Part shown: piece after piece, positions 1 to 22,129 of the stretch | How the letters are laid out: the number at the start of each line of letters is the position of its first letter | How positions within the stretch are numbered: position 1 is the stretch's first letter | Assembly: GCA_025056465.1 (NCBI GenBank) | Contig: JANWVU010000002.1 | Span: 293 to 43,403 of the forward strand | Source: Verrucomicrobiia bacterium | Lineage (GTDB): Bacteria; Verrucomicrobiota; Verrucomicrobiia; Palsa-1439 | Length of the DNA: 43,111 nucleotides | Direction: 5' to 3' | The notes under the pieces: generated by a model | What the model was told of the DNA's origin: nothing | The model's input: only the letters and a program-made list of their open reading frames with translations | Database searches by the model: none | Position numbers and translations under genes: made by a program

Positions 1-514
1 CGGCGAGAATTACGGCCGGGTTGTTGGCCAACGCGCGCGCGATTGCCACCCGTTGCTGTTGCCCGCCCGATAACTCGAACGGTTTGTGATGCAACCGGTG
101 GCCCAACCCCACACGCTCCAAAATCCGCGTCGCACGCGCCGTCGCCTCCGCCTTGCTTGCGCCCTGAAAAATCATCGGCAACATCACATTTTGCAGTGCG
201 GTCATCACCGGTATCAGGTTGAACGTCTGGAAGATGTACCCGATTTTGTTGCAGCGAATCCATGCTTGTTGCCGTTCGCTAAGCTCAAGCAGATTTTGTC
301 CCTCGAAATACACGCGCCCTTCCGTTGGCACATCCAGCGCGCCCACCTGATTGAAAAACGTGGACTTGCCGGACCCGCTCGGGCCCATGATGGACAAAAA
401 TTCGCCCCGATAAATGTCGAGTGTGATGCCCCGCAACGCCCACACATCCTCATCGCCCAACCGGTAACGCTTCTTGACCTCTTGGGCCGAGATGATGACG
501 TCACGGCTGCTCAC
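1..514 (-). CDS. ABC transporter ATP-binding protein (MacB/LolD-type), paralog 2; its C-terminus runs off the left window edge
   Basis: Absent from the ORF track because no stop codon lies in the window. Hand translation of the minus strand from GTG (514..512) gives VSSRDVIISAQEVKKRYRLGDEDVWALRGITLDIYRGEFLSIMGPSGSGKSTFFNQVGALD...IGYIFQTFNLIPVMT...LSGGQQQRVAIARALANNPAVILA. This shows Walker A, the Q-loop region and the ABC signature. The GTG overlaps the TGA of the upstream gene (GTGA at 511-514). Confidence 0.9.
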   Translation of the reverse strand, partial: MSSRDVIISAQEVKKRYRLGDEDVWALRGITLDIYRGEFLSIMGPSGSGKSTFFNQVGALDVPTEGRVYFEGQNLLELSERQQAWIRCNKIGYIFQTFNLIPVMTALQNVMLPMIFQGASKAEATARATRILERVGLGHRLHHKPFELSGGQQQRVAIARALANNPAVILA

Positions 515-879
515 GCCTTGTCCTCCGTACCGGTTGCCGCGGGATGATGAAGTTGAATCAATCGGCGGTCCAACAGGTCGCGGGTGAATTGAACCACCGC
601 GCGCCGACTGTCCGCCAACGAATGACCAAATCGCGCCGCAAATCGTGCCGCGATTTCACCCAGCGAATTCTCGCCATTGATCTGCTGCCAGTAGAACGTG
701 CCGTACTCGTCGAGTTGCACATGCAAATCCGCGCGCCAACCAAGCCGGTAGGCCAACCGTTGCGGCCAACCGCCACTGTAAAGCTGCGCTTTTCGCACGT
801 GCATCCGTCCGCGTGAATCCATACGCGCTTCCACCCCGGCAGCAATCAGAGGAATCGCGGCCAACGGGTCGTCCATCAT
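511..879 (-). CDS. PqqD-family-like small protein (RiPP recognition element fold), 122 aa
   Basis: ORF track 511..879. The segment HVQLDEYGTFYWQQINGENSLGEIAARFAARFGHSLADSRRAVVQFTRDLLDRRLIQL matches the PqqD pattern. That pattern is: L-n-x-x-g-x-x-iW-x-x-idG-x-x-s/t-v-x-eIa, then an acidic/variable stretch, then v-x-x-F-l-x-x-L-x-x-x-x-li. ATGA overlap with the upstream ATPase (876-879) and GTGA overlap with the downstream ATPase (511-514). Confidence 0.6.
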   Translation of the reverse strand: MMDDPLAAIPLIAAGVEARMDSRGRMHVRKAQLYSGGWPQRLAYRLGWRADLHVQLDEYGTFYWQQINGENSLGEIAARFAARFGHSLADSRRAVVQFTRDLLDRRLIQLHHPAATGTEDKA

Positions 880-1655
880 CGGAACTCTCCGCTGTTGAAA
901 TCCACCTCGCTCGGGCGCGCCATCCGCACAATGCGACCATCTTCAATCCACAAAATTCGGTCGGACCGCTTGAGCATTTTTAGATCGTGCGTGGCGCTCA
1001 CAATGGTCACCCCAAGTTTCTCTTTCAGCGCCGCCAGCAATTCAATCATCTCCTCGCCCGTTTTGAGGTCCAGGTTGCCGGTTGGTTCGTCGGCCAAAAT
1101 GATTTCGGGGCTGTTGGCCAGCGCACGCGCAATCGCCAATCGTTGTTGTTGTCCTCCCGACAACTCGGCCGGCTTGTGCAGCAACCGGTGTCCCAGTCCC
1201 ACCAAACGCAACAGATACACCGCCTTGTCGCGCGCCGTCTCATCGTCCAACCCGGCAAAGCTCATCGGCAACGTGACGTTTTCCAGACAGGTCATCACCT
1301 GAATCAGGTTGAATGTCTGAAAAATGTATCCGATTTTGCGACAGCGCAGCCACGCCAGCTCGTTATGGTTAAGCTGTGCAATGTCAACCTGGTCAATGTA
1401 CACCTTGCCCGAGGTCGGCTTGTCCAACGCGCCGATCATGTTGAACAACGTGGATTTGCCCGAACCGCTCGGTCCCATGATCGAGAGATATTCACCCTTG
1501 TACACGTCCAAGGTCGCTCCGCGCAGTGCGTGTGTCTCCACCGACCCCATCCGGTAGACCTTTTTGACATCGACCGCGCGGATGACACAGGCCGGCTCGC
1601 CCTGCGCCGGTGGTTTGAACAGATTTTCGTATTGGGCAGTGGCCGGTTGGTTCAT
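876..1655 (-). CDS. ABC transporter ATP-binding protein (MacB/LolD-type), paralog 1, 259 aa
   Basis: ORF 876..1784, trimmed to the internal ATG at 1655 (MNQPATAQ...), which forms an ATGA overlap with the stop of the upstream permease (1652-1655). Motifs: GPSGSGKST (Walker A), IGYIFQTFNL, LSGGQQQRLAIARALA (signature), ILADEPTGNLD (Walker B), SATHD (H-loop). Confidence 0.93.
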   Translation of the reverse strand: MNQPATAQYENLFKPPAQGEPACVIRAVDVKKVYRMGSVETHALRGATLDVYKGEYLSIMGPSGSGKSTLFNMIGALDKPTSGKVYIDQVDIAQLNHNELAWLRCRKIGYIFQTFNLIQVMTCLENVTLPMSFAGLDDETARDKAVYLLRLVGLGHRLLHKPAELSGGQQQRLAIARALANSPEIILADEPTGNLDLKTGEEMIELLAALKEKLGVTIVSATHDLKMLKRSDRILWIEDGRIVRMARPSEVDFNSGEFR

Positions 1656-2578
1656 ACGTTTGCTCGCAAGGCGTGCGCCGGTACCATCCGCGACGCAAAC
1701 TGCGCGGGATAAATCGCCGCCACCACCGAAAGAACCAGCCCCGCCAACACGCTCACAAAAAAGTATCCACCCAGCGTCCCCCACGAAATCGCCTCCCAGA
1801 CTCGTCCCAAACCAAACGACAACCCGTACACCACGATCGCGACCAGCGCACCGGCCATGCTGCCGACCAACCCACCCACCAACCCAATGATGCTCGACTC
1901 AATAAAAAATATCTCGCGAATAAACGCCGACAATGCACCCAAGCATTTCATCGTTCCGATTTCGCGAAATCGCTCCGTGACCGACATTAACATCGCGTTA
2001 CTGATCCCAATAACCGTGACCAGCAATGAAACCGCTAGGATCCACACCGTGCGCGTGCGCGCTTCCCGCTCGCGTTGTTGTTGTATGGCCAACTCTTCCG
2101 CACTCGGTTGGTACTGCAATGACCTCACACCCTCCCGTGCACTGACCCGTGTGGTGAAAACCAGCCGCGTTGACTCGGGTGTCGGTGGCTCGGCGGTTCC
2201 GACGACCAACACGGCGGTCACACCCTCGCCCGCGCCGACGAAGTGGACTCCCTCGCGCCGCAACGCTTCCAACAGCCGGTATTCACGCACCTCCAACTCG
2301 CCTTCTTGCACCAAATGGATGCGACGATCTTTTAGCGGCCCGATTTCAGAGCTCATCGTGTTGACCATCCGCCGCACGTCCGTGCGCAACTCCGCCTCGG
2401 CACGCACCCCCGTTTTGATCATTTGGCCTGTGAGGATGGACATCAGAAACGCCAATCCCAAAACCACACCGGTGATCGTCACCAGCGAGCGGCCCAACCG
2501 AATGCGAATTCCCTGCAACACCACACCCACGGCAATTGCGAACGGCAAGCGAACTTGTTCCTGAACCGCCTGTGGCAT
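1652..2578 (-). CDS. FtsX-family ABC transporter permease, 308 aa, with a short extracytoplasmic domain
   Basis: ORF 1652..2905, trimmed to the ATG at 2578 (MPQAVQEQVRLPF...), 2 nt after the stop of the upstream gene (2581-2583). N-terminal TM (ITGVVLGLAFLMSIL), then a loop of about 125 aa, then a C-terminal FtsX module (TERFREIGTMKCLGA... plus three hydrophobic helices). Confidence 0.85.
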   Translation of the reverse strand: MPQAVQEQVRLPFAIAVGVVLQGIRIRLGRSLVTITGVVLGLAFLMSILTGQMIKTGVRAEAELRTDVRRMVNTMSSEIGPLKDRRIHLVQEGELEVREYRLLEALRREGVHFVGAGEGVTAVLVVGTAEPPTPESTRLVFTTRVSAREGVRSLQYQPSAEELAIQQQREREARTRTVWILAVSLLVTVIGISNAMLMSVTERFREIGTMKCLGALSAFIREIFFIESSIIGLVGGLVGSMAGALVAIVVYGLSFGLGRVWEAISWGTLGGYFFVSVLAGLVLSVVAAIYPAQFASRMVPAHALRANV

Positions 2579-2580
2579 GG

Positions 2581-4686
2581 TCAGAAGGGAGCTCCCGACA
2601 CTGCTTGTTTGATCAGATTCAGCGCGATGGTGGCCATGCTCACCAGCCCAACCCCGGTAAAGTACCCTGCCGTGACCGTTGGAATCATCCGCAGGAAATT
2701 TTCCGCGCCGAATTTCCTCTGGAAGTAATACCGGCCAATCATAGCGCCCACGATCTCCAACACCATCGTATGCGGAATCCCACCCAACCCGCGCACCACA
2801 CCGTACACCAGCAACACCGGCAGGCCCACCATGCTCAATACGCTGTAGCCAGCCACCGTCACAACGGCGCCCGCCAGAATGACCGGCCCTTTCAATGCCT
2901 TCCAAAACTGACTGTCGCGAATGTCTTTTTTGGCGGGATCCTCACCCGGTGGGACAAATGTTGAGGATAAGCGCAAAGCAAAATGTTTCGCGTTCAACTC
3001 CCAAAACTTTTGCGCGTAGGGAAATGCCGGTGAGGGAATCGGTGTGGACGACCAGATGAACAGGAAGAATAAAAACGACAACACATACAACACTGGCAGC
3101 GCCACCAAATCCACTTTCACCAACGACGTGAATTTCACGCCGGTCAGCTCCGTGATGCGGAAGCCTTGCACCTGACCGCCGTAATTCTCAACCGGTATCG
3201 GTGCCAGCCAGATTTCTGTGCCTTTGACCCCCGACAGAATGAATGCTGTCTCGCGCACGAACGGCAAATCCACCGTTTGCCCCGCCACACCGAGCAACCG
3301 ACCGTTGATGTACGTCAGCAACGGCGTGTACACAAACTCAAACAGGATAATGAACACCAGCAGCATCCACGAACGCGGCAACAGCAACCAGCACAAAAGG
3401 ACCGTTGCCGTCCCCGCCACGATGTAACCCGCCAGCGCCAACCACAACGGAAAATCTCCCCGTCCCGTTCGCGGCGTGTCCCAGACACGCTCCGACGCTT
3501 GATTGGCGCGGCGCTGTTGCCGCAACTCAGCCACTCGCGCGCGCACATCGCGCACCGTCACAAAAATGCTGACGGCCGCAATCCCGATCGCCATGCCGAT
3601 GCCAAAGCTGAGATAAAAATCGAGCTGGTTGGCGAATAGCGTGTTGATGGTGTCCATACCGGGTTGCCAATGCGTCAGCACGCCGGTTTTGTGGAGTACC
3701 GGGTTCAACACCAGGGTGAGCATCACCGCGATAAATCCGCCCACAACTGCCCAGAACGGAATGATCATCCCGATCAGTACGATGCCGAGATCAAACGAGA
3801 TACCGGTCGGCGTGGCCGGTAGCAGTCCCTCCGTCAGGGCCGTGGTCTCGATCCACGGTTGCGGGATCAAAAAGACCGGTTTGTCGAGCACCAACGCAGT
3901 CAATGCGGGAATGCCGACCTGAAAGAAACCAAATCCCAATCCCAGCGTAGCGCCGAGCGCAAACAATCGCCACTTCGTACCCGTTTTCTTTTGTCCCGCC
4001 GCAAGAAACGCTTCCCGCGTGAATTCGACCCGGTCGGCCTCTCCACTGACTTTCTTGGGAGCCGCGGACTCGGTTTCCTCGGCCAACGCCATTGCGCCTT
4101 GTGCGTTGATCGGCGCCAGTGGGAACGGCAACTTCTCGATGTCCGATAACATGCGAAAGAAGAAATAACCGAGGCAGTATCGTTTGATGTAGCCGGCCAC
4201 CATCAGAAACACCATCAACGCCACCGGGATCATCCAATCAACATGCAGCAAATTGCGTTGAAGAATCGCCGGACTATTGGGGCCCGGCGCCCACCATGCC
4301 GGTAGGCTCTCGCTCATCCCGGCATCGCGCACGGCATCGCTGGTGACGTAATAGGCCCGTACGATCAAATCGCCGAATGGTCCCCCGGGCATCGTCGCCA
4401 CCATCACACTGGCCACGTGCAGCAGCACCACCAGCTCCTGTTTCGACATCGTTTTCAGCGCGCGCCGCGACACCTCGCTGAAGAGAATGACCGTGACCCA
4501 CGAAGCCACCGCGCCGAAACTGCCGCCAATCATCAACCCGAGATAGATCGAGCCCGGCAACATCACCAGGCCGCAAAACAAAATCCCCACCACCGCTTTC
4601 CAGCCGAAGCCCTCCCGAAACTCCGTTGGCGGCTCCAGCAGGTTGCGATACAGCGCCAGCTCGCGGTCTTCAGCGGTCGGTGGCAT
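2581..4686 (-). CDS. Large polytopic membrane protein, 701 aa, with distant OPT (oligopeptide transporter) superfamily resemblance
   Basis: ORF 2581..4809, trimmed to the ATG at 4686 (MPPTAEDRELALYRNLLEPP...). There are many hydrophobic helices throughout. OPT-like segments: GSIYLGLMIGGSFGAVASWVTVILFSEV, IEKLPFPLAPINAQGAMALAE (compare the OPT L-P-F/Y-P-E/S-G-T-A motif), and the C-terminal IPTVTAGYFTGVGLVSM. The family call is motif-level only. Confidence 0.7.
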   Translation of the reverse strand: MPPTAEDRELALYRNLLEPPTEFREGFGWKAVVGILFCGLVMLPGSIYLGLMIGGSFGAVASWVTVILFSEVSRRALKTMSKQELVVLLHVASVMVATMPGGPFGDLIVRAYYVTSDAVRDAGMSESLPAWWAPGPNSPAILQRNLLHVDWMIPVALMVFLMVAGYIKRYCLGYFFFRMLSDIEKLPFPLAPINAQGAMALAEETESAAPKKVSGEADRVEFTREAFLAAGQKKTGTKWRLFALGATLGLGFGFFQVGIPALTALVLDKPVFLIPQPWIETTALTEGLLPATPTGISFDLGIVLIGMIIPFWAVVGGFIAVMLTLVLNPVLHKTGVLTHWQPGMDTINTLFANQLDFYLSFGIGMAIGIAAVSIFVTVRDVRARVAELRQQRRANQASERVWDTPRTGRGDFPLWLALAGYIVAGTATVLLCWLLLPRSWMLLVFIILFEFVYTPLLTYINGRLLGVAGQTVDLPFVRETAFILSGVKGTEIWLAPIPVENYGGQVQGFRITELTGVKFTSLVKVDLVALPVLYVLSFLFFLFIWSSTPIPSPAFPYAQKFWELNAKHFALRLSSTFVPPGEDPAKKDIRDSQFWKALKGPVILAGAVVTVAGYSVLSMVGLPVLLVYGVVRGLGGIPHTMVLEIVGAMIGRYYFQRKFGAENFLRMIPTVTAGYFTGVGLVSMATIALNLIKQAVSGAPF

Positions 4687-7600
4687 GGGCGGGAACGCCG
4701 AGTTGGGCGTCGAGCAATTGTTTCGCTTCCTCGAACAACTCGGCGCGCTGGCCGGCATCCACGGCGCGCCAGTGCAGGAAATGACGGCGGATTTGTGCCA
4801 CGAAACCATGATTGAGCCGCATCCAGGCTTCGCGCGTGCCGCTCAGCCGTTCGAGCCGGATCATGGCGATGTACTCGCGGGTCTCGAGATCGGTCTGCAT
4901 GTGGATGACCAATTCCTGCGACACGCCGAGGTCGAACGGTTTGAGCCAGATGGTGCATCGAATTTCCGGGATCGGACACTCGGGTTGCAACGGATCCGGT
5001 TGCTCCGCCAGACCTAGCTGCGGTGGCCCCGCATAGAATCGGCCCGCGCTACCCTCTCCGTGGTCGAGGAAGTATCGGTGGAAAAATGCCAGAATCGCGA
5101 TGCGATCCCGGTGGCTGAACGTGAACGGCAGAGCAAACGAGAGCCGGTCGCCTTCGGGAGCCGGTAGTTTCCACCCCACGTCCTCGCTAGGCGCGGCAAT
5201 GCGCAACGCCGCCCGCGCCGGAAAATACGTCGAGAGCAACGTTGCGCCGATGATCGTGGCGGAGACATACACCGTCATTCGTGATGTGAAATTGAGCTGC
5301 ACCCCACCGGTCCAATCCAGCGCCGTCAACACGCTGCCGGTACCCTGAGCGAGCAAATAGCCCACGACCGTGCCCACCACCGAATAGACCAGCGCCTCCG
5401 CCATGAACATGAAAAACACGTAGCGTGGGGCAATGCCCACAGCGTTGTAAACGAAGATTTCATCCCGCCGCTCATATACCGAGCCGCGCATGGTGTTCAA
5501 CACTGTGATAGCCGCAATGAATAGCGGGATGAGCAAATCCAGCATGCCCTCTGCCGTGATCTCACGGCTCCGTCTGCCGAGGTAAGCAATGCCGCCCAAC
5601 CCATAGTAAACCGCGCGACCGGTCTGCTCGAGGTAACGGTTGATTTCCTCCCGCACCTCAGCGTATGGAGCGCTGCCCATGTCCACTGCCACGGATACCA
5701 TGCGCAGGAAACCATACGGCACGTGGAAGCCCACCAAATCGTCACGCGTGATCGCAACGAGCGCCGGGTCAATTAACGGTGCATTCTCATCCGCGATGAT
5801 CTCCCAAAACCGACCGGGCGCCGTCGGGCGCAATTCCGTCATCGCGGTCACGTCGAACGGCAACAAATTGCGACCGTCGAGGTCCGTCAACGACGCCAAA
5901 TCGGCTGGCTCGAAAATACCCCAAACCACAAACGGGCGTCCGTTGATCGTGACCGGCTGGGGTTGCTGCTCCACACGGGCCACCGTGATGCCGAGCTGAC
6001 GCGCCATGGGGGCGGAAATCAACACTGGCGTATCGGTCAGCTCGCTGACTTTGGGAAGCCAACCGGTCTTTGTCAGCAGGGGCAGTCGCGCGCCCAAAGG
6101 CTCCAACGCGTTGAGCAGAATGAGCGATTTGAAACTCACCTTACGGGTCTCACCCTCGCTCGTTGTGTGTTGCATGGTCAGCGCGGGGTTAAACGTTTCC
6201 CGCTCCCAGGTCTGCATCCCCACATACATCTGACGCGCGACGACGTTGTATTTTCGGCCATAGCGACGGTCCAACGCGAATTTTTCATCGGACGACACCG
6301 GCCGAAATTGCGGCGGCTTCACCAGCAACCCGTTGTACGGCGCCGGGCCGGTGGGCGTGACCATGTCGACAACATCGCTGTGCAGCGAACTGAAACACAG
6401 CATCGCGAACGTGATGAGCACGAGCGTGGCGCAAGTTAGCCCCGTGCGCACTTTGCGCCGGTGCATGTTGTTCAACCCGAGCGCAAAGGCCGTCCCAATG
6501 ACGCCGATAGTGTTCACCTCGGCCGCCTCTACCTGCGCACGTTTCCGCCGCAACGCTTCGAGATTCTCGCGGAAGCGTCCGCTGACCAGCGCAATGACTC
6601 CCAGGGAGATCAGCAAAATGATGAACCCCAACAAAATCATCAGCGAGGAGCGAATCATCGCGAACGCCGGATGCAACACTGCCAGCAGCGTGAACACGAC
6701 CACGAATATGATCGCGTTGGCGGTTAGTTGCAGGCGAATGTCGGCAAACCCGAAAACCAGTCGCTCAAAGAAAAACACAAACGGCACAAGCAAAAACAAA
6801 TACCAAATGATGCCCACGATCGCGTCGTAAATTGCGCCGCGGATAATCGGATAGTTTAGAATCGAGTACGTTGCCGAGCCCCGTGCATCTTCCAGCACGT
6901 CCGCGAGCGGTCGTTCGGGTTGTTCGGCCCGTTGCCAGAGCGTGCGCGCGTTTTCGTGAAACTCAGTGGTGCGCCGGTCGGCCATCCGGTAACGTTGCAA
7001 CGCCTCCAAACGTGGGCTGTTCAGCGATAGCATGGATCGCGCGGTTTCGAGCGCCTCCGGCTGCAGCAGCGGATGATGGGCAACAAGGTAGCCGCGAGCA
7101 TTGACCGTTGCGAGGCCGGCGGCAGGCTCATCGGGATGGGTGTTCATCATCACCGCGCGCGTGGTTTGAACCAATTCATTGTCAGGGGCACCGGCTTTGA
7201 GGCGGACAATGAAGCGCTGGTCCGGGGGGAGAAAAATCGTGACCGGCCCGTCGGTGCGGCAGAGGTTGAACGATCCAAACGGCGTCAGTGTGTCGGCACG
7301 GTCAAAATCCAAACCCGAATACTGTTTCATCGTCTGGGGGTTGGCGACGTCCAACACCGTGACCGGAGCCGCGCGAAACAGAATAAAATGGATTGGCTTC
7401 GTGACTCCTCCGTAAAGCGAGATACCGGCTGTGCGGTACAATGACTGCGCGGTAGCCCCTTCATCATTGACGTGGGCGATGACGCCGTCGGCACCATAGG
7501 CGGCAGCAAAAAACTGGTGCCCCCAACCGGCAAAGAATCCTGAAGGTGCTGACAACAACTCGTAATTTCCGTACGCATCGGTCACAAGAAAGAGCCGACG

Positions 7601-9697
7601 GAAGTGGCCATTGTGATGAAACTCAGGTCCTTTGCTGCCAACCAAGGCTCCAGCGAGCGTATAATTAGGAATTACCGATTCGCCGATCCCGCCGACGTAA
7701 ACCGTTCCGTGGGCAACTAGGGGTGATGCCCAGCCGGGCTCCGCAAAGCGTCCGTTGCCGTGCGCATAAAAGAGGACCGTCTCCCCCCAAAATGCAAGCC
7801 CACGCTGGATCGTGGTCGCCTCCCGCATAAACGGCAACTCGACCGGCAACGCTGCACTGAGGTACGCGTCTGGCCGGTCGGGGTAGATCAAATCAAAGGC
7901 GGGGTACCAGAACTGATTCCAAAAATGCGCGCTGGGTGGCACATGTGCCATCGCACTGTCGGTCTGTTGAGCGAATTGCGGTGAGTAGGTGATTAGCTCG
8001 GGAACATCTTGGCCTTCGCGTTCCATGAGCTGGCGTACGGAAAATAGGTGTCGACTGATGAGCGGTCCGTTGATGCGATGCACAACACCCGGCCCGAGAT
8101 GGAAACTCACCGTTTCCGTGTTCTTCGCGAATGGCACCAGGCGCGGGCGCAGGACCACGATTTCACGGTAGCGTGCGAACAGATCATGAATCGCTAACTG
8201 TTGCTGCCGGTATCGCTCACGGCGCGCATGGTGCTCCGCCAACTCGGCAAACCGTTCCCGAAGCCGGTCGCGAAGCTGGCGTTCCTTGACCGTGTCCAAC
8301 CGCACCTGCATCAACCGCTCCAAGGAATAACCGGCGGCCGAGAAACTGTCGTCATACCGGCGTTTGGCCGCCAGATACACCTGATAGAGCGGATGGTGTA
8401 CATCGCGCAGTCCCTCCGCCACAACCGGGATGCGCGCCTGAAGCACCTGCTCGTTGTCCACCATCACGAGGGTGTTGAGGACGTGGCGTAATTGTTCATC
8501 AAAAAACCTTCGCATCGGTCCGGTCACGCTCTGCATGGCTTGGACCGTTGCGGACCGGTCGTCTAAAAAACCCGGTTGCTCGATCAGTCCACGCAGTTCG
8601 TTGACCCACCGAGCACGTTCCTGCTCTGCGACCCGCCGACGCTCAATTTCCGCGCGCGTGTTTTCGCGGCCCAACCGAGGTCCCATCGCTGCCAACAATT
8701 GCGAGTCTGCCTCGCAGGCCATGACGTCGGTGCCGGTCGCAATGAAAATGACATCGCGCAGCAGCGACGTCCGGTAGGCTTGCAGCCCTTTCAGTGCTTG
8801 CAACATCTGCACGAGCCCGTGCGCCTGAATTACGCCTGGTGCGCGATCCGGCAGGATCGAATAGGCATCGTAACCGGCCCGAATCACAAGCGCTTCAGCC
8901 GCTGGCTTTGGGCTTCTCATCACGCCAACAAGCACCGTGTTGGCAATGGGACGGATCGCGGTCTGAACATGCAGCGTGACGGATTCGCCGAGATGCCGGT
9001 AGATATCGGACGTGGCCATGAGCCGCACGAAGTTGATCGGCTCATGCGACAGCATGTTTTGGTTGATCTGATGCCACTGCTCGATTTTGAGTTGTTCCCA
9101 ACCGCCGCGCGGTGCCACGATCACGGCACGCACGCCGAGTTGCGCGTATGATGTCCAGCGCAGACCATAAATCGGCGGAGGCGCCAACGGGTCTAAGACC
9201 GCTATGCAGTCGTCAAACCGCTGTCGCGTCGCCAGCTCCTCGGGCGTCATCAAGACCAACCGCCCGGTTAGCCCGTTGGTTGGCGTGACCATGGGTTGGA
9301 CGTGATTGGGGAAAAACGGGTAAATCTCCACATCACCCAAAGGCCGTCCGCTGACATCAAGAATTTCGCGGCGCAACGTGACCGGCGCCGGAGTTTCTAG
9401 GTTCAATTCATAAGTCTCTAAGCCCGCTTGCTCAAATGCGCGTCGCACGTACTCCGCCGCGCGGACGTATCCCGGTTGCCCGATGAACCGGGAGCCGAAC
9501 GAGAGCACCACGTTCAATGCCGATTCGACCTCGCGCACGGACAGCGCGGCGCGCATCGCGTGGCGGTCGTAGTCGGTGGCCAGGTCCGTATCTGGTGGTC
9601 GCGGTTTGGGCGCGTAACACCGCACAAACGCCCCCATCGCCAGCACCGTTAGCGTCAAGGCCACGGCGGCTGTCACGATATTGAACACTCGATTCAA
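4670..9697 (-). CDS. Giant (1675 aa) double-FtsX ABC permease fusion. Order: N-terminal TM anchor, degenerate M28/PA peptidase-like ectodomain, helical charged region, unknown ectodomain, TM cluster, MacB-like periplasmic domain, canonical FtsX module, and an unknown cytoplasmic domain of about 175 aa
   Basis: Single uninterrupted ORF with a TTG start at 9697; GTG alternatives lie 3 and 7 codons in. aa 5-25 are hydrophobic (VFNIVTAAVALTLTVLAMGAF). aa ~55-340 are M28/PA-like (LTGRLVLM...DDCIAVLDP...LGVRAVIV; ALVIRAGYDAYS; VIFIATGTDVMA). aa 950-1040 hold three hydrophobic helices. aa 1086-1106 are a TM (LTCATLVLITFAMLCFSSL). aa 1386-1500 are FtsX (VYERRDEIFVYNAVGIAPRYVFFMFMAEALVYSVVG...). Confidence 0.85.
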   Translation of the reverse strand: MNRVFNIVTAAVALTLTVLAMGAFVRCYAPKPRPPDTDLATDYDRHAMRAALSVREVESALNVVLSFGSRFIGQPGYVRAAEYVRRAFEQAGLETYELNLETPAPVTLRREILDVSGRPLGDVEIYPFFPNHVQPMVTPTNGLTGRLVLMTPEELATRQRFDDCIAVLDPLAPPPIYGLRWTSYAQLGVRAVIVAPRGGWEQLKIEQWHQINQNMLSHEPINFVRLMATSDIYRHLGESVTLHVQTAIRPIANTVLVGVMRSPKPAAEALVIRAGYDAYSILPDRAPGVIQAHGLVQMLQALKGLQAYRTSLLRDVIFIATGTDVMACEADSQLLAAMGPRLGRENTRAEIERRRVAEQERARWVNELRGLIEQPGFLDDRSATVQAMQSVTGPMRRFFDEQLRHVLNTLVMVDNEQVLQARIPVVAEGLRDVHHPLYQVYLAAKRRYDDSFSAAGYSLERLMQVRLDTVKERQLRDRLRERFAELAEHHARRERYRQQQLAIHDLFARYREIVVLRPRLVPFAKNTETVSFHLGPGVVHRINGPLISRHLFSVRQLMEREGQDVPELITYSPQFAQQTDSAMAHVPPSAHFWNQFWYPAFDLIYPDRPDAYLSAALPVELPFMREATTIQRGLAFWGETVLFYAHGNGRFAEPGWASPLVAHGTVYVGGIGESVIPNYTLAGALVGSKGPEFHHNGHFRRLFLVTDAYGNYELLSAPSGFFAGWGHQFFAAAYGADGVIAHVNDEGATAQSLYRTAGISLYGGVTKPIHFILFRAAPVTVLDVANPQTMKQYSGLDFDRADTLTPFGSFNLCRTDGPVTIFLPPDQRFIVRLKAGAPDNELVQTTRAVMMNTHPDEPAAGLATVNARGYLVAHHPLLQPEALETARSMLSLNSPRLEALQRYRMADRRTTEFHENARTLWQRAEQPERPLADVLEDARGSATYSILNYPIIRGAIYDAIVGIIWYLFLLVPFVFFFERLVFGFADIRLQLTANAIIFVVVFTLLAVLHPAFAMIRSSLMILLGFIILLISLGVIALVSGRFRENLEALRRKRAQVEAAEVNTIGVIGTAFALGLNNMHRRKVRTGLTCATLVLITFAMLCFSSLHSDVVDMVTPTGPAPYNGLLVKPPQFRPVSSDEKFALDRRYGRKYNVVARQMYVGMQTWERETFNPALTMQHTTSEGETRKVSFKSLILLNALEPLGARLPLLTKTGWLPKVSELTDTPVLISAPMARQLGITVARVEQQPQPVTINGRPFVVWGIFEPADLASLTDLDGRNLLPFDVTAMTELRPTAPGRFWEIIADENAPLIDPALVAITRDDLVGFHVPYGFLRMVSVAVDMGSAPYAEVREEINRYLEQTGRAVYYGLGGIAYLGRRSREITAEGMLDLLIPLFIAAITVLNTMRGSVYERRDEIFVYNAVGIAPRYVFFMFMAEALVYSVVGTVVGYLLAQGTGSVLTALDWTGGVQLNFTSRMTVYVSATIIGATLLSTYFPARAALRIAAPSEDVGWKLPAPEGDRLSFALPFTFSHRDRIAILAFFHRYFLDHGEGSAGRFYAGPPQLGLAEQPDPLQPECPIPEIRCTIWLKPFDLGVSQELVIHMQTDLETREYIAMIRLERLSGTREAWMRLNHGFVAQIRRHFLHWRAVDAGQRAELFEEAKQLLDAQLGVPAHATDR

Positions 9698-9809
9698 GTT
9701 TTCCCGATGAATCCTTGTTGGCGTGTGCCCGCGGTCGCGCCCCTCCTCGTGGCGTGCGACGTTTCCGCTCGCGCCACCGCCTCGCTTTTTGCTGCGCCGT
9801 CAGGTTGGT

Positions 9810-9885
9810 TGGTGAGCCGGGAGGGGCTCGAACCCTCGACCCACGGCTTAAAAGGCCGTTGCTCTTCCTACTGAGCTACCGGCTC
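9810..9885 (-). tRNA. tRNA-Lys (anticodon UUU), 76 nt with encoded CCA
   Basis: The reverse complement reads GAGCCGGTAGCTCAGTAGGAAGAGCAACGGCCTTTTAAGCCGTGGGTCGAGGGTTCGAGCCCCTCCCGGCTCACCA. It folds by hand into a cloverleaf: acceptor GAGCCGG/CCGGCTC, D stem GCTC/GAGC, anticodon stem ACGGC/GCCGT with loop CTTTTAA, and T stem GAGGG/CCCTC with a TTCGAGC loop. Confidence 0.93.
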
Positions 9886-13002: not shown

Positions 13003-14277
13003 CTACTTCAAGAACAGCTCCACCACCGGCACCGTGACGGTCGGGCGCACAGCCGGCAACGTCAATGTTAGCGTGCGCTCCGAGCCGCCAAGCTGGGAGG
13101 CATGCCATGCATCCATTCCCATTTTGACCTCGCTGGCGTCATGCAACAGTTGCGCGTAGGCTACGCGGTCGGCAAACGCGCCGTCCAAATGCAGATGTTT
13201 GTACGGCCACGCGAAGATGTGCACATAGATGCGGTTGGTTTGGGGATTGTAAGTCAGCCGGCAATCTTGCGGACAAGGAAACTCGGGCGGGGCCTGCGTG
13301 CAGCCATAGATGGCGCGGTTGTGCCGTTTCATCCACTCACCGATACCGGCCAACCGAGACAAGGCGCGTTCATCGAACTCGCCACGCCCGGTCGGGCCGA
13401 CGTTCAGCAGGAGGTTCCCGCCTTTGCTGACGCAATCAATCAGTGTCCGCACCAACTCGTCCACGCTGCGCCATGTCATTTCATCGCGGTGATAACCCCA
13501 CGAGCCGCTAAATGTCTGGCAGGCTTCCCACACCACCGGTTTGCCGTCCACCACCGGCCAAGAGCGCGGTTGGACTTGCTCGGGCGTCTTGACGTCCCAC
13601 GCGCCGGGCACGTCCATGAGGTCGAGCCGGTCGTCGAGGATGATGTGCGGTTGGAGCTTACGGACGAGTTTGAGCAACTTCAGGCTCTGCCAATCGTCTC
13701 GACCCTTGCCATCCTCGCCCGGGTAACTGAAATCGAACCAGAGGATATCAATCTTGCCGAACTGGGTCAGCAACTCACGCGTCTGGCCGTAGAGATACGC
13801 CGCGTACTTGCGCTGGTCTCGTCCCCGGTTGAGCTTGGCGCGGTCAGGATGATCGCGCAATGGATGGAGCTTGTCGATGATGAAGTGGGGATGATGCCAG
13901 TCCAGCAATGAATAATAGAACCCCACGCGCAAGCCCCGCCGTCGAAAAGCTTCGACCATTGGCTTGAGTAAATCCCGTTTGGCCGGCGTGTTGGTGGCCT
14001 TGTAGTCAGTTAGCTTGCTGTCCCACAAACAAAAACCCTCGTGGTGTTTGGTGGTCACCACGAAGTACTTCATACCGGCGTTTGCCGCCGCCGCGGCCCA
14101 CTCGTCCGGGTTGTACAAATCTGGGTCAAATCGCTCGAAGTAACGCTGATACTCTTCATCCGTCATTCGCTCGTAGTTTTTGACCCACTCGTGACGAGCG
14201 GGCAACGCATAGAGACCCCAGTGAATAAAGAGACCGAAACGGTCATGGACAAACCACGAAGTGTCACCTTTTTGCAT
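13003..14277 (-). CDS. Alpha-L-fucosidase (GH29), 424 aa; start ambiguous (14277 or 14367)
   Basis: WFVHDRFGLFIHWGLYALPARHEW...NAGMKYFVVTTKHHEGFCLWDS...RDLLKPMVEAFRRRGLRVGFYYSLLDW. The ATG at 14277 (MQKGDTSWF) is preferred. The 30-aa upstream extension is Cys-rich and not signal-peptide-like. Confidence 0.88.
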   Translation of the reverse strand: MQKGDTSWFVHDRFGLFIHWGLYALPARHEWVKNYERMTDEEYQRYFERFDPDLYNPDEWAAAAANAGMKYFVVTTKHHEGFCLWDSKLTDYKATNTPAKRDLLKPMVEAFRRRGLRVGFYYSLLDWHHPHFIIDKLHPLRDHPDRAKLNRGRDQRKYAAYLYGQTRELLTQFGKIDILWFDFSYPGEDGKGRDDWQSLKLLKLVRKLQPHIILDDRLDLMDVPGAWDVKTPEQVQPRSWPVVDGKPVVWEACQTFSGSWGYHRDEMTWRSVDELVRTLIDCVSKGGNLLLNVGPTGRGEFDERALSRLAGIGEWMKRHNRAIYGCTQAPPEFPCPQDCRLTYNPQTNRIYVHIFAWPYKHLHLDGAFADRVAYAQLLHDASEVKMGMDAWHASQLGGSERTLTLTLPAVRPTVTVPVVELFLK

Positions 14278-14414
14278 GCGCGCGCGTATAGCACAGCAGA
14301 CGGGGCAAGCAATCGAAAAGCAGACAGAGAAAATGGGAGCGTGGCGGGAAAACCACCACGCTCCCACGGGACCGTCAAGCGGTTGGCGCTGGACCCTTCT
14401 TGCTTACCAGAGCT

Positions 14415-17128
<2,714 letters not shown>

Positions 17129-17787: not shown

Positions 17788-17991
17788 ATGAGTTTGGAGC
17801 GCATCATCCGTGCGATTGCCGGCTCATTCATCTTGATCAGTTTGGCCTTGGCACACTTCGTCAGCCCGTACTGGCTGTGGTTCACCGTATTTGTGGGAGC
17901 CAACTTGCTGCAATCTGCTTTCACGAACTGGTGCCTCATGGAAATCATTTTGAGAAAGGCCGGTGTGGGTGGCGCATGCGCAAGCCGGTAG
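17788..17991 (+). CDS. DUF2892 (YgaP-like) small inner-membrane protein, 67 aa
   Basis: RIIRAIAGSFILISLALAHF...WLWFTVFVGANLLQSAFTNWCLMEIIL gives two hydrophobic helices and the conserved Cys-containing C-terminal motif. SD AAGGAGG lies at 17775-17781. Confidence 0.72.
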   Translation: MSLERIIRAIAGSFILISLALAHFVSPYWLWFTVFVGANLLQSAFTNWCLMEIILRKAGVGGACASR

Positions 17992-18950
17992 TTGTCCTCA
18001 GCGCGGTTGCCGCGTTGGCTCTCTACGGATGCGGGCACCGCACCGAGCCGGTGGCCGACACGACCACAACGGTGTCAGTAGAGACCCTTACCGTGCACCT
18101 GCAAAGGACGCCCGAAATTTTTGAAGTTGTTGGCACCGTGCGACCCCGCGTGTCGGCCACCATTTCAGCAAAGGTGCTGGCCGCGGTTGAGGAGGTCGCG
18201 GTCAAAGCCGGTGACGTCGTAACCAATGGCCAGTTGCTGGCGCGCTTGGATGCCCGTGAGTTGGCGGCCGAGTTCGACCGGGCGCGTGCCGATTATGAAC
18301 GGATCAAGACGTTGGTTGAACAACAAGCCGCCGCACCGGCGGAATTGGACGCCGTATATGCACGCTACCTGGTTGCCCAAGCAGCCCTGAGCAACACACG
18401 GGTGGTCGCGCCTTTCGATGGCGTAATCGCCAGCAAGCTTTGTGATGTCGGGGATATGGCCGCTCCGAACAAACCTCTGTTTATCATCGAGCAAACCGAC
18501 CGCTACCGGCTGGAGGCGTTTGTGCCCGAACGGTACGCCGCCGCCGCTGCGATCGGAAAACACGTGCACGTCATTCCCGAGGTGACGGGCGAAAAGTGCC
18601 AGGGCGTAATCGGGGAATCGGAACCCACGGCGGACACGGCGAGCCGGAGTTTTCTCATCAAGATTGATCTCGACTGCCGGCAACCGGTCAAATCCGGTGG
18701 CTTTGGCCGTGCGCAGTTGATCATCGGCGAGCGGTTTGCGTTGTTCGTGCCGCGCGAGGCCATCCACGTGCACGGCCAGTTGATGTACGTGTTTGTCGCC
18801 GAGAACAACCGCGCGACGATGCGTCTGGTGAAGCTCGGTCAGGAATACCTTGGAGCAGTGGAGATTTTGTCGGGTGTAAATCCCGACGAGCGCGTCATCG
18901 TAAAAGCCGAGGGTGTGCTGCGTGACGGCGCGCCCATCCGAACGCTGTGA
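17976..18950 (+). CDS. RND efflux periplasmic adaptor (membrane fusion protein), lipoprotein, 324 aa
   Basis: ORF 17877..18950, trimmed to the ATG at 17976 ([19 protein letters not shown], signal peptide plus lipobox). Shows the biotinyl-lipoyl/hairpin pattern ([17 protein letters not shown]...[16 protein letters not shown]...VVAPFDGVI). Overlaps the DUF2892 gene by 16 nt. Confidence 0.9.
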
Positions 18951-21900
18951 ACTCCCCAGCGCATCCAACTGATAACTTGGCGGGGCGGATTGTCCGTTAT
19001 TTCATTGATTCGAAGCTGACCCCGCTGGTGGTGATTGCCTCGGTGCTGCTCGGGGTTGCGGCGGTCGTGTTACTGCCCCGCGAGGAAGAGCCCCAAATCA
19101 TCGTACCGATGATTGACGTGTTTGTGAGCTTTCCAGGCGCATCCGCCGAGGAGGTTGCCGAGCGGGTCACCAAGCCGATGGAAAAGCTACTATGGGAAAT
19201 CCCTGGCGTTGAGTACATCTACTCGACGTCGCGGCGGGACGGCGCGATGGCGATTGTGCGGTTCGAGGTCGGTCACAATGAAGAAGACGCCATTGTCCGA
19301 CTGAACCAGAAGATGTTCGCCAACTATGACCTGATCCCGCCGGGGGTCAGCCAACCACTTATCAAACCGCGTCGCATCGATGACGTGCCCATCCTAACCT
19401 TGACGCTACACAGTCGCCGCTACGACCATTACATGTTGCGGCGGCTGGCGGCGCAGTTAGACGATGTCATCAAGCAAACCCCGGATGTTTCGGCAACTAC
19501 GTTGATTGGCGGACTGCGCCGACAATGCCGGGTGCTGCTGGACGTGAATCGGTTGGCAGCCTACCGGATTGATCCTCTCCGCGTGGTTAAAATGTTACAG
19601 GCCGCCAACCAGCAAACGTCGGCTGGCAGCTTTGCCTCGCAAAATCAGGAGATCTTGGTGGATACGGGAGGCTTCCTGCGCGATGCCGACGATGTGGCCG
19701 CCGTGGTGCTCGGTGTCGCCAACGGGCGGCCGGTATACCTGCGAGACGTCGCCACCATCGTGGATGGACCAGAGGAACCTTCCCAATACGTGTTATTCGG
19801 ACGGGGTCGAGCGCACGCCCCGGGTCAGGAATCGGTTGCGACCGGTGAAGAGCCTGCCGTCACCATCGCCGTGGCCAAGCGCAAAGGCACAAACGCAATT
19901 CGCGTCGCCGACCAAGTCCTGAAACGCATTGAGGCCCTCAAAGGCGTGGTGATTCCCTCCGATGTCGAAATCACAATCACCCGCCACTACGGTCACACTG
20001 CTGCGGAAAAATCCAACGAGTTACTGCTGCACATGGGCATCGCGGTAATTGGGGTCAGCGTCTTGATCGGCGTCGTGCTTGGCTGGCGCGAGTCCGGTGT
20101 GGTGGCCGTGGCCATCCCGGTCACACTCGCGCTGACATTGGCAACATTCTACTTTTTCGGGTTCACGCTGAATCGCATCACGTTGTTCGCGCTGATTTTC
20201 TCGATCGGTATCCTCGTGGATGACCCCATTGTGGATGTCGAAAACATCGTGCGCCATTTTCGATTGCCGCAGAATAAAGGACGTCCTCTTTTGGAGGTCA
20301 CCATCGAAGCCGTCAACGAAGTGCGTTCGCCGTTGATCTTGGCCACGTTGACGGTGATTGCGGCGATTTTGCCGATGGCATTTGTGCGCGGATTGATGGG
20401 GCCGTACATGCGACCAATCCCCATTGGAGCCAGCGCGGCGATGATCTTCTCGATGATCGTGGCGTTTGTGGTCACCCCATGGGCCGCCTATCGGATTTTG
20501 CGCGGTCAGGCAGGCCGTCACGATCATCATGGCGAGCAAGAGGACTGGACCACGCGCCTGTATCGGCGAGTGATGGCGCCGTTGATTCACCATCCGCTTT
20601 GGCAAGCTGCGTTTTTGGTGGGCATCACGGTGTTGCTCATTGGCTCGATAGCACTGGTGTATTTCAAGGCGGTTCGCGTGAAGATGTTGCCCTTCGATAA
20701 CAAAAGCGAGTTCCAAATTATTGTCGACATGGATGAGGGCACGACGCTCGAACACACCGCCCGCGTGGCGCGAGAAATCGCGGCGGTGGTGGCGGCCGAA
20801 CCGGAGGTGACGGACTACCAGATATACGTTGGCACCGCCGCGCCGTTTAATTTCAACGGATTGGTGCGCCACTACTTCTTACGGCAGGGGTCGAACGTTG
20901 CGGACATTCAGGTCAATCTTTTGCCAAGACATGAACGGCGGGCACAAAGCCATGAGATAGCCAAGCGAGTCCGACCGGCCGTGCAAGCGGTCGCCAACCG
21001 GTATCACGCACGGGTAAAAATCGCGGAGGTGCCACCGGGCCCCCCAGTATTACAAACCTTGGTCGCGGAGGTTTACGGACCCAACCGGTTTGAAAATGCG
21101 GCCAAGATCAAAGACCTCTTCCAGCGCACGGAGGGCGTGGTGGATGTGGACTGGTATGTTGAGGCGCCCCAGCAAAAAATTGTGTTGCAGATCGATCACG
21201 AGAAAGCCGCCCTCCACAACATCCAAGCCGCCGACATTGCACAGGTTGTGGCCATCGCGCTTGGAGGCCAGCCGGTGGGATTGATCCACCAACCGCAGGA
21301 GAAAGAAGACGTACGCATCGTCGTGCAGCTTCCGGTCGAGCAACGGTCACGTTTGACAGGATTAATGCAACTGCATGTGGGCGGCGTACCGTTGAGTGAG
21401 TTGGTTCGCGAACATAACACCGTGCGCGACCGCAGCATTTATCACAAAAATCTGCTGCCGGTTACCTATGTGACCGCCGACGTCGCCGGCAGGGAGGAAA
21501 GTCCCGTTTACGCGATTTTGAAGTTGAATCAAGCAATCGCCGAGATGGGTCTCGACATCTATTTCACACGCCAACCGGATTCTCTCGACCGCCCGTCCAT
21601 CAAGTGGGATGGCGAGTGGCACATCACCTACGAGGTGTTTCGCGATCTGGGATTGGCGTTCGCCGCCGTGCTGGTTCTGATTTATGTGCTGGTCGTAGGG
21701 TGGTTTCGTTCATTCCAAACACCGTTTATCATCATGGCAGCGATTCCCTTTTCCCTCGTCGGTATCCTACCGGCTCATTGGGCCATGGACGCGTTTTTCA
21801 CGGCAACTAGCATGATTGGATTTATCGCCGGCGCCGGGATCGTTGTGCGCAACTCGATCATCTTGGTGGACTTCATTGAGCTGCGCCTCGCCGAGGGAAT

Positions 21901-22129
21901 GTCGCTGGCGGATGCGGTCGTGGATGCTGGCGCGGTGCGGTTCCGTCCGATGATGTTGACCGCCGCGGCGGTGGTGGTCGGCGCCAGCGTGATTCTGTTC
22001 GATCCAATCTTTCAGGGTCTGGCCATCTCGTTGATGGCCGGTGAGATTGCTTCCCTGCTGCTGAGCCGATTGGCCGTGCCGGTAATCTACTACTTGGCCA
22101 ACCGCCACCGCTACGCCGCAACTTCGTGA
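18947..22129 (+). CDS. RND efflux transporter permease (AcrB/CzcA superfamily), 1060 aa
   Basis: The GTG at 18947 overlaps the adaptor stop (GTGA). Typical 12-TM, two-large-loop organisation, with [33 protein letters not shown] near the N-terminus, [22 protein letters not shown] in TM4, and [20 protein letters not shown] in the second half. Confidence 0.94.

Follow-up and report, generated by a model that had tools for sequence, protein, structure and literature searches.

The first 9697 nucleotides of the stretch analysed here (the window, 43,111 nucleotides of contig JANWVU010000002.1 from a Verrucomicrobiia bacterium) are occupied by six successive minus-strand open reading frames (ORFs), the window itself beginning within a gene. 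These encode two FtsX-type permeases, two ATP-binding cassette (ABC) ATPases, a polytopic protein resembling the oligopeptide transporters (OPT) and a small PqqD-type protein. Judged by profile matches, the ABC parts are members of the type VII (MacB/FtsX) superfamily, and what is new is a type VII ABC system with an unprecedented set of partners. An earlier note on this DNA had not recognised the gene combination as a described system, and indeed no literature account of it, or of the DUF6785/DUF6784 family that usually accompanies it, was found. We hold the chances to be about even that the six genes specify a single multi-subunit machine of the cytoplasmic membrane, in which a type VII ABC mechanotransducer would work with an OPT-fold conduit on a peptide-like ligand. 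That the genes form one functional unit is argued from their coupled junctions, from an order kept in about 80 genomes of at least six phyla, and from the retention of the same families in distant, reordered loci.

A coupled operon conserved across phyla

The genes of the operon, in order of transcription and in window coordinates, are as follows.

4670-9697, minus strand: BigFtsX, a permease of 1675 amino acids (aa), from the ORF call; first gene of the operon here
2581-4686, minus strand: OPT-like polytopic protein, 701 aa, ATG at 4686
1652-2578, minus strand: SmallFtsX, 308 aa, ATG at 2578
876-1655, minus strand: ATPase1, 259 aa
511-879, minus strand: PqqD-type protein, 122 aa
1-514, minus strand: ATPase2, first 171 of 246 aa, GTG at 514, cut by the window edge

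Direct reading of the junctions gave a 17-nt overlap between the BigFtsX stop and the start of the OPT-like gene, a 2-nt gap between the OPT-like stop at 2581 and the SmallFtsX ATG at 2578, ATGA overlaps at 1652-1655 and 876-879, and a GTGA overlap at 511-514; all ORFs and all five junctions of the coupled set at 1-9697 read as the earlier note had given them. The chosen starts are backed by conserved N-termini in the ortholog alignments of the OPT-like protein, SmallFtsX and ATPase1. A scan for transcription signals was uninformative, with no sigma-70 promoter matches and terminator-like sites only at the chance rate. Past the left edge the unit continues, as had been proposed, but only for the last 75 codons of ATPase2 and not for any further operon gene. 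This flank was read on contig JAVQYI010000002.1 of a Verrucomicrobiae metagenome-assembled genome (MAG; GCA_033577295.1, locus L001), where the full ATPase2 gene is followed by housekeeping genes for a 3'-5' exonuclease, a ROK protein, a metallophosphatase and an ornithine/diaminopimelate decarboxylase. A lasso-peptide cluster, another cluster for ribosomally synthesized and post-translationally modified peptides (RiPPs), or a Lol or Mac cluster beyond the edge was accordingly rejected, and the leftward extension revealed no characterised cluster of any kind.

A pattern scan with one genome per species covered 185,579 species genomes, of which 288 carry a relative. Loci were compared in the best 80 of these 288, all 80 of them MAGs, comprising, as judged from record titles, about 26 Verrucomicrobiota, 20 Lentisphaerota, 5 Kiritimatiellia, 11 Planctomycetota, 6 Sumerlaeota/BRC1 and 1 Armatimonadota, with a few labelled Myxococcota or Proteobacteria; the cultured Puniceicoccus vermicola has the complete form, with seven genes. 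The near-universal order, called type A here, is DUF6785, BigFtsX, OPT-like, SmallFtsX, ATPase1, (PqqD), ATPase2. Its recurrence in about 80 independent genomes puts the operon beyond chance and confirms a conserved, coupled multi-gene unit; the 1675-aa and 701-aa proteins, whose neighbourhood the earlier note had singled out, recur together in about 80 species genomes from at least six phyla. Over the loci with enough flanking DNA, the components were counted as follows.

DUF6785: 48 of 52 loci
BigFtsX: 55 of 59 loci
SmallFtsX: 65 of 69 loci
ATPase1: 61 of 63 loci
ATPase2: 48 of 53 loci
PqqD: 30 of 53 loci

The six genes of the window are not the full set, since the usual operon has a seventh gene that is absent here. 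This usual first gene encodes a polytopic DUF6785/DUF6784 protein of about 850 aa (for example in L010 and L089). None is present anywhere in the window or in the operon of a 93%-identical relative (L088), and in both its place (9698-9885 in the window) is taken by a tRNA-Lys(UUU) gene and a divergent polyprenyl-synthetase gene; the tRNA gene at 9810-9885 and the synthetase gene form the upstream border of the operon. Database matches included no DUF6785 protein from this MAG, which may be incomplete. DUF6785 has no PDB sequence match. Residues 370-574 align weakly with residues 151-392 of the OPT-like protein (hhalign, E = 0.017), including 'ERy.LPl.rIP' against 'E.LPFPlAPI' of the OPT-like protein, and a collinear weak match links DUF6784 with the OPT-like C-terminus (E = 0.01). 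These alignments are suggestive only; DUF6785/6784 may be a second remote member of the OPT superfamily.

In a second group of loci, type B, BigFtsX is 22-28% identical and the same parts are reordered.

L092: small FtsX, ABC, BigFtsX, DUF6785, OPT-like, two unknown proteins, PqqD
L093: BigFtsX, thioredoxin, OPT-like, two unknown proteins, PqqD, small FtsX, ABC
L095/L096: TPR, BigFtsX, OPT-like with Reg_prop insert, one unknown protein, PqqD, small FtsX, ABC

The identity of the OPT-like proteins in type-B loci was confirmed at 1e-149 and 1e-110. Because these loci keep the same families in other orders, five families make up the core: BigFtsX, the OPT-like protein, PqqD, a small FtsX and an ABC ATPase. 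Apart from its duplicated ATPase, the window has exactly this set. Retention of this core in reordered loci is the strongest argument for joint function. The extra type-B proteins, of 200-360 aa and encoded directly upstream of PqqD (L092 18895-20413; L093 15879-17878; L095 12872-13843), have no Pfam match; those of 302, 323 and 359 aa are weakly homologous to one another.

The same comparison bears on a simpler explanation, a loose clustering in which an OPT-type secondary peptide importer merely shares an operon with one or two independent FtsX-type ABC transporters. OPT proteins do usually act alone as proton symporters, and the set is split in a few loci: L030, L041 and L064 have no BigFtsX and DUF6785 upstream, L083 has no downstream genes, and L004 has the OPT-like and ATPase1 genes only. 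Nevertheless, type-A loci and the shuffled type-B loci alike hold the five families, at about 25-45% identity, all junctions are translationally coupled, all membrane parts show unusually high and parallel conservation, and the OPT-like clade is small and distinct (1031 representatives), all of which makes mere clustering improbable.

The flanks were surveyed through 145 ORFs (69 upstream, 76 downstream) of about 70 loci, from which the 25 commonest families per flank set were listed. No conserved flanking gene emerged, the top Pfam family accounting for 4 of 69 upstream and 3 of 76 downstream ORFs.

Folds and conservation of the components

BigFtsX is the largest and most composite of the proteins. 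Its parts, in window coordinates and in protein order, are listed below.

9623-9679, minus strand: first transmembrane (TM) helix, TM1, aa 7-25, by hydropathy
7748-9565, minus strand: putative M28/PA pseudopeptidase with an inserted helical domain, aa 45-650, by profile and by AlphaFold2 (AF2) and Foldseek
6833-7735, minus strand: beta-rich ectodomain followed by stalk helices, aa 655-955, by AF2 secondary structure
6578-6832, minus strand: three strongly conserved TM helices, aa 956-1040, by hydropathy (helices at aa 959-1038)
5198-6439, minus strand: canonical MacB-type unit of TM helix, periplasmic domain and FtsX TM2-4, aa 1087-1500, by Pfam and profile
4673-5197, minus strand: conserved cytoplasmic C-terminal domain, aa 1501-1675 (175 aa), by alignment

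Hydropathy gives eight TM helices in a 4+4 arrangement. TM1 and the three helices at aa 959-1038 make up a first 4-TM unit, which a short cytoplasmic linker separates from the MacB-type unit with its TM helices at 1087 and 1382-1500. Between TM1 and the next helix at aa 959 lies an ectodomain of about 930 aa, in keeping with the roughly 900 aa first estimated. Pfam FtsX (PF02687) matches aa 1391-1500 above its cut-off (1.4e-11), and the family profile aligns with MacB (5nik) at aa 1244-1510 (8.8e-11) and also with YtrF, LolC and LolF; MacB_PCD (PF12704) is matched by 5 of 28 BigFtsX relatives and not by the window protein. The earlier description of a double-FtsX permease is supported by the 4+4 topology and not by sequence, where one FtsX domain is detectable and an internal FtsX duplication was rejected (hhalign probability 0.6%).

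Conservation is distributed unevenly over the protein. In a homolog set of 28 sequences with 21-83% identity, the TM and cytoplasmic parts of distant members are 57-70% identical, against 25-41% for the extracytoplasmic domains. The segment aa 956-1040 reaches 65% identity to distant members and holds the invariant residues E978, H1009 and P1010, while the C-terminal domain reaches 57%. This C-terminal domain has no Pfam match in the window protein or its relatives, is unrelated to the extra 300-360-aa proteins of type-B loci, and carries the conserved motif 'SGTREAW.RLN..FV...RRHFLHWRAV....R.E.F.EA'. A stretch of 55 aa within it resembles alpha-tubulin H11-H12, at a non-significant E of about 0.05 against the PDB; the resemblance is probably due to chance.

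The M28 assignment of the ectodomain is well supported as a fold. The family profile matches the aminopeptidases 2ek8 (2.6e-12) and YwaD as well as nicastrin (1.7e-5), and Pfam M28 is matched in 6 of 28 relatives. An AF2 model of aa 1-1066 (pLDDT 87.6, pTM 0.85) retrieves 2ek8 (1.6e-12), PaAP and BSAP at 1e-12 to 1e-10, and the transferrin receptor (TfR) and glutamate carboxypeptidase II (GCPII) at 1e-9, by Foldseek; no separate PDB match was obtained for aa 655-955. The catalytic motifs, in turn, are altered: HxD reads YDA, GAxDD reads GVIQA and EE reads TD. All close family members have lost these residues: Y or F stands in place of the first His (in a single member, L), Q, A or similar in place of the bridging Asp save in the most distant relatives, and TD, SR, SQ or similar in place of the Glu-Glu pair, the catalytic Glu being lost in all 28 sequences. 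These three sites are what the comparison covered, the C-terminal ligands lying outside it. An active M28 aminopeptidase was rejected because the metal ligands checked and the catalytic Glu are lost; by the same residues the ectodomain would be a pseudopeptidase, a receptor-type binding module rather than an enzyme. Of the M28/PA module that had been proposed, the fold is thus retained and the peptidase activity is not, which also rules out processing by this domain.

The permease core of BigFtsX further matches the PADLOC model 'CARF_m8--CARF_LolE_TM' at aa 963-1293 (5818-6811; E = 1.9e-34). The match spans the TM helices and periplasmic core only, with no identifiable CARF domain there, and means that relatives of this core were catalogued in a CARF-domain census. 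It is the one observation that favours an anti-phage defence or signalling module. As no CRISPR, CBASS or other defence genes occur in the window or flanks, and the remaining PADLOC matches are generic ABC/AAA similarity, such a module is very improbable; a defence role was rejected, the matches reflecting the FtsX core and generic ATPase similarity.

SmallFtsX has the topology of a single MacB-type unit by hydropathy, with TM1, a variable periplasmic domain of about 125 aa and FtsX TM2-4. Pfam FtsX matches aa 180-299 above its cut-off (1.6e-13), and the profile retrieves MacB (1e-17), YtrF, LolF, LolE and FtsX from the PDB. The two ATPases match Pfam ABC_tran at 2e-33 (ATPase1) and 7.4e-31 (ATPase2) and share 61% identity; the Walker A, signature, Walker B-Glu and H-loop motifs are canonical in each. 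Their best NCBIfam matches are LolD, which ranks first for both, the MacB nucleotide-binding domain (NBD), DarD and FtsE (1e-67 to 1e-60), all under the equivalog cut-offs, including the LolD match of ATPase1 at 1.3e-67. These Pfam, NCBIfam and PDB profile matches uphold the FtsX permeases and MacB/LolD-type ATPases of the earlier note. ATPase1 also has conserved tails of its own, an N-terminal extension ('..LF..P...') and, at the C-terminus, 'PSE(I/V)DF..EF'; because the extension is conserved in orthologs, the 259-aa start at the ATGA overlap is preferred, and the NCBI call of 224 aa is probably too short.

Between loci, first-position ATPases are 74.5% identical and second-position ATPases 71.8%, against 55% across positions, and in every one of 106 cases the nearest neighbour of an ATPase came from the matching position of its operon. 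Such a pattern indicates that ATPase1 and ATPase2 are ancient, separately conserved paralogs, which confirms and extends their paralogy as first read. It also fits the asymmetric NBD pair of the fully asymmetric complex that had been imagined. The distant variants, however, have a single ATPase gene, so asymmetry of the NBDs is dispensable for the machine.

For the 701-aa protein, the OPT assignment comes from structure. Barley YS1 (HvYS1, 7wst) is the sole significant PDB match of its AF2 model by Foldseek (E = 2e-8, probability 1.0, TM-score 0.50/0.56, 13% identity). Pfam OPT is passed by 1 of 30 close orthologs (P0056, 1.1e-10) and by the more distant relatives P0272 (33.9 bits) and P0392. 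The protein also contains the motif 'LPFP...A..GA.A', which we take to be typical of OPT proteins, and its N-terminus (aa 1-26) is conserved and disordered. Its homologs number more than 900, with 56-61% identity in other phyla, and an exhaustive profile search found 1031 representatives among 1.84 billion proteins; from these sequences the clade appears to be a small, separate branch of the OPT superfamily. The protein itself is best regarded, on the strength of the model, as a very divergent OPT-fold membrane protein, so that the earlier assignment holds for the fold and for some relatives, although this protein fails the Pfam OPT model (PF03169).

In relatives of 800-1083 aa (P0272-P0291), a PDZ, Reg_prop or WD40 domain is inserted near profile position 580, a site that corresponds to a single loop at aa ~575-598 of the window protein, and these inserts point to binding of a ligand or protein at that loop. 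In one lineage (L004/L005, 10001-13114) an OPT-like gene stands beside a true ATPase1 ortholog with both tails, with no FtsX genes near; this pairing hints at a specific relationship between the OPT-like protein and ATPase1.

The 122-aa protein has no TM or signal-like hydrophobic segment. It passes Pfam PqqD (34.1 bits against a cut-off of 23.4; 3.5e-8), and the family profile matches PqqD 3g2b (3e-6) and the lasso-peptide B1 chaperone 9x90 (8.4e-5) in the PDB. By these matches, which bear out the earlier assignment, it is a genuine protein of the PqqD or RiPP recognition element (RRE) type. Of 53 type-A loci, 30 have the gene and 23 (43%) lack it, but it occurs in all type-B loci seen; because type-B loci keep it, PqqD belongs to the system even though it has been lost from many type-A loci.

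PqqD/RRE domains are treated as markers of RiPP biosynthesis, and a RiPP or bacteriocin exporter is an alternative interpretation, with PqqD reading a leader peptide in the cytoplasm and the ABC and OPT-like parts exporting the product. Apart from PqqD/RRE membership itself, this agrees with the resemblance of the NBDs to the darobactin exporter DarD (6.3e-61) and to lactococcin-972-type exporters, both under the cut-offs, and with the fact that MacB-type pumps export peptides. Yet the tightly packed operon leaves no room for a precursor ORF, and no RiPP precursor or maturase was found in the window, on contig L001 or among the listed families of the 145 flanking ORFs, where radical-SAM enzymes, lasso cyclase or protease, cyclodehydratase and other maturases are all missing. 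There is likewise no adjacent membrane-fusion or TolC gene, and PqqD is absent at 43% of loci. An exporter of this kind has, in our judgement, little probability.

Known systems and the proposed machine

Several known systems share parts with the operon, but their cut-offs and defining partners are unmet, for which reason the ABC parts are assigned to the type VII superfamily at large and not to Lol, Mac or FtsEX. LolCDE is similar in having two different FtsX-type permeases (TM1, periplasmic domain, TM2-4) with LolD-type NBDs, and the type-B variants, like it, have one NBD gene for two FtsX genes. It differs in its scores, which lie under the equivalog cut-offs (LolD 227.5 against 307.75; LolE 39.5 against 439; LolC 18.5-21.7 against 473), and in its partners: the operon has two distinct NBDs, OPT-fold and PqqD partners and no LolA/LolB genes near, and one of its permeases adds a 4-TM unit, the pseudopeptidase-like ectodomain (about 930 aa) and a cytoplasmic domain at the C-terminus. 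MacAB-TolC is similar in the TM helices and, as far as the profiles align, in the periplasmic core of MacB (MacB structures are retrieved at 3e-11 to 1e-9 with BigFtsX and at 1e-17 with SmallFtsX), whereas the NBDs here are separate polypeptides and no gene for a membrane-fusion protein or TolC accompanies the operon, whether in the window, on its contig or in the flanks surveyed at other loci.

FtsEX-EnvC/PcsB/RipC combines a type VII motor with a periplasmic peptidase-like module. EnvC, through which FtsEX works, is a degenerate LytM domain, and the module of BigFtsX is also without the catalytic residues checked. The dead peptidase here, however, is of M28/PA type and fused to the permease, the OPT-fold and PqqD partners have no counterpart, the FtsX models score far under their cut-offs, and there is no division-gene context. 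The M28, PA (apical) and helical-domain arrangement recalls nicastrin, TfR and GCPII. Nicastrin and the transferrin receptor are non-catalytic binding modules; the domain described here differs in that it occurs in bacteria, forms part of an ABC permease and precedes another domain, rich in beta structure. OPT/YSL transporters (7wst) share the fold of the 701-aa protein, and some of its relatives pass Pfam OPT, but known OPTs are stand-alone secondary transporters and this family is always encoded with ABC parts. The PqqD/RRE proteins, matched at both Pfam and profile level, differ in that neither a precursor nor a partner maturase (PqqE, B2 or similar) is near and the gene stands between two ATPase genes. 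The YtrBCDEF operon of Bacillus subtilis encodes the NBDs YtrB and YtrE, the polytopic YtrC and YtrD, and the MacB-PCD/FtsX protein YtrF (PMC8060467). It is similar in its two NBD genes, extra polytopic proteins and MacB-PCD protein, YtrF being among the PDB matches obtained here, and differs in having no PqqD or M28 domain and a Gram-positive host; homology of YtrC/D to the OPT-like or DUF6785 proteins is not expected.

These likenesses also nourish a different account of the operon, as an envelope-maintenance machine of the FtsEX-EnvC or LolCDE kind, in which the ABC motor would move the dead-peptidase ectodomain and so switch on or pull out some part of the envelope, for instance a cell-wall hydrolase, lipoprotein or stem peptide, and the OPT-like protein would recycle released peptides. 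The type VII core is related to LolC/E/F, FtsX and YtrF, FtsEX itself acts through a degenerate peptidase, a catalytically dead M28 domain suits a regulatory or binding role, and the host is diderm, since the contig encodes LptD. Furthermore, YtrBCDEF affects cell-wall thickness (PMC8060467). We nonetheless regard this account as unlikely: the flank survey revealed no hydrolase, LolA/B, amidase or cell-division gene conserved beside the operon, every Lol and FtsX NCBIfam score is far under its cut-off, and the patchy spread (288 of 185,579 species genomes) is unlike that of an essential envelope function.

The machine that we favour would be driven by an ABC mechanotransducer of type VII (MacB/Lol/FtsEX-like) built from unlike subunits. 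In it, BigFtsX would pair through its MacB-type C-terminal half with SmallFtsX, as LolC does with LolE, and an ATPase1:ATPase2 heterodimer would drive the pair. Sharing of one NBD dimer by the two permeases is suggested by the type-B loci, which have one ATPase for two FtsX proteins, and the heterodimer in type A by the closer relationship of same-position than of cross-position ATPases in all 106 cases. The OPT-fold protein may serve as a membrane conduit coupled to this motor, probably contacted by the N-terminal 4-TM unit of BigFtsX, with the polytopic DUF6785 protein as a further candidate partner in most genomes. A membrane-embedded complex is argued for by the high conservation, across phyla, of the membrane and cytoplasmic parts of BigFtsX, the OPT-like protein and the NBDs. 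The dead M28/PA domain, similar to the transferrin receptor and nicastrin, would act as a binding module outside the membrane, and the PqqD-type protein as a dispensable peptide-binding adaptor in the cytoplasm. In operation, a peptide-like ligand or polypeptide terminus may be captured at the expense of ATP and handed over between the periplasmic side and the OPT-fold conduit. A peptide-like ligand is suggested by three peptide-type binding modules, namely M28/PA, PqqD and, in relatives, PDZ. Substrate and direction are guesses, with a slight lean towards uptake or retrieval over export. From the earlier idea of peptide-directed export, processing or sensing, export and sensing persist as inference, whereas processing by the M28 domain has dropped out with the catalytic residues.

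A number of observations weigh against this machine. The OPT-like protein has no Pfam, NCBIfam or PDB sequence match, and its AF2 model is of moderate confidence (pLDDT 68). Neither a substrate gene nor a regulator beside the operon hints at a function in the flank survey, and an Rfam search of the window and of six diverse loci revealed no riboswitch or leader RNA. In 43% of type-A loci PqqD is missing, as DUF6785 is from the present locus, absences which imply that neither is essential to the core action. BigFtsX, with its 4+4 TM helices, could be a complete pseudo-dimeric transmembrane domain, leaving SmallFtsX to a second transporter. Finally, to our knowledge all characterised type VII ABC systems work outward or in the periplasm and none in uptake, which is why the direction proposed above is a guess.

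The ligand could also belong to another class, if the operon were an uptake or sensing machine for oligosaccharides in polysaccharide-degrading bacteria of the Planctomycetes-Verrucomicrobia-Chlamydiae (PVC) type. Most hosts belong to the Verrucomicrobiota, Lentisphaerota, Kiritimatiellota, Planctomycetota or Sumerlaeota; genes for a GntR/Peripla_BP_3 regulator and an alpha-L-fucosidase immediately precede the operon in Puniceicoccus vermicola; GFO/IDH/MocA, sulfatase, GH2, GH29, GH43 and GH130 genes are scattered in the flanks; and one distant OPT relative is located between GH57 and GH2 genes. Some OPT-like relatives, moreover, have Reg_prop inserts, a glycan-sensor domain in the hybrid two-component systems of Bacteroides. 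What makes this doubtful is that no carbohydrate gene is conserved beside the operon, the commonest family reaching 4 of 69 upstream ORFs, that such genes are abundant in these phyla and give a high background, and that the three identifiable binding modules are of peptide type.

The significance of the operon is that it joins three kinds of part in one strongly conserved unit, found in hundreds of mostly uncultured PVC, Sumerlaeota and Armatimonadota species. Type VII ABC systems such as MacB, Lol, FtsEX and Bce are thought to perform mechanical work at the membrane without a transmembrane substrate channel; here, if the parts form one machine, a mechanotransducing ABC motor would be linked to a channel-forming partner, the RRE fold would gain a role outside RiPP pathways, and a function would be provided for the OPT-like clade, for DUF6785/DUF6784 and for a family of 1,600-1,800-aa proteins called 'ABC transporter permease'. 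The chance that a new transport principle is involved is non-negligible. In its boldest form, the OPT-fold protein would be no stand-alone secondary transporter but the channel through which a primary-active machine, powered by a MacB-type motor, moves a polypeptide or oligopeptide, with a nicastrin/TfR-like receptor outside and an RRE chaperone inside. This version is tentative and rather unlikely, but if true it would establish ABC-energised OPT translocons as a new class and make this RRE/PqqD protein the first to serve a transporter instead of a RiPP maturase. The presence of the seven genes in the cultured Puniceicoccus vermicola makes the question experimentally accessible.

Neighbouring genes

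Around the operon, a DNA_pol_A_exo1 3'-5' exonuclease gene follows ATPase2 by 3-11 nt in four loci (L001 11111-11707; L008, L010, L088); this placement is confined to a verrucomicrobial sub-clade and is not kept in other lineages. In the window, an alpha-L-fucosidase gene lies at 13003-14367, 3.3 kb upstream of the operon, and in Puniceicoccus vermicola (L089 8653-9963) a same-strand alpha-L-fucosidase gene is directly upstream, after the GntR/Peripla_BP_3 regulator. Proximity of fucosidases to the operon may be a coincidence in the fucosidase-rich Verrucomicrobia.

The rest of the window holds unrelated neighbours: a KatG-type catalase-peroxidase gene at 14415-16703, an HlyD-type adaptor with an AcrB-type resistance-nodulation-division pump at 17877-22129, which is a separate pump, and an ABC_tran_2 and ABC ATPase pair at 23225-25800. 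Between 28000 and 42000 the genes keep to the minus strand for a long distance, and the GC skew is strongly negative (-0.15 to -0.35); amino-acid kinases are encoded in this run. A polysaccharide-synthesis cluster begins at about 33 kb, with genes for a Wzx/MurJ-like flippase, a sulfotransferase, a phosphodiesterase-family protein, a GT4 glycosyltransferase and a GFO/IDH/MocA oxidoreductase.

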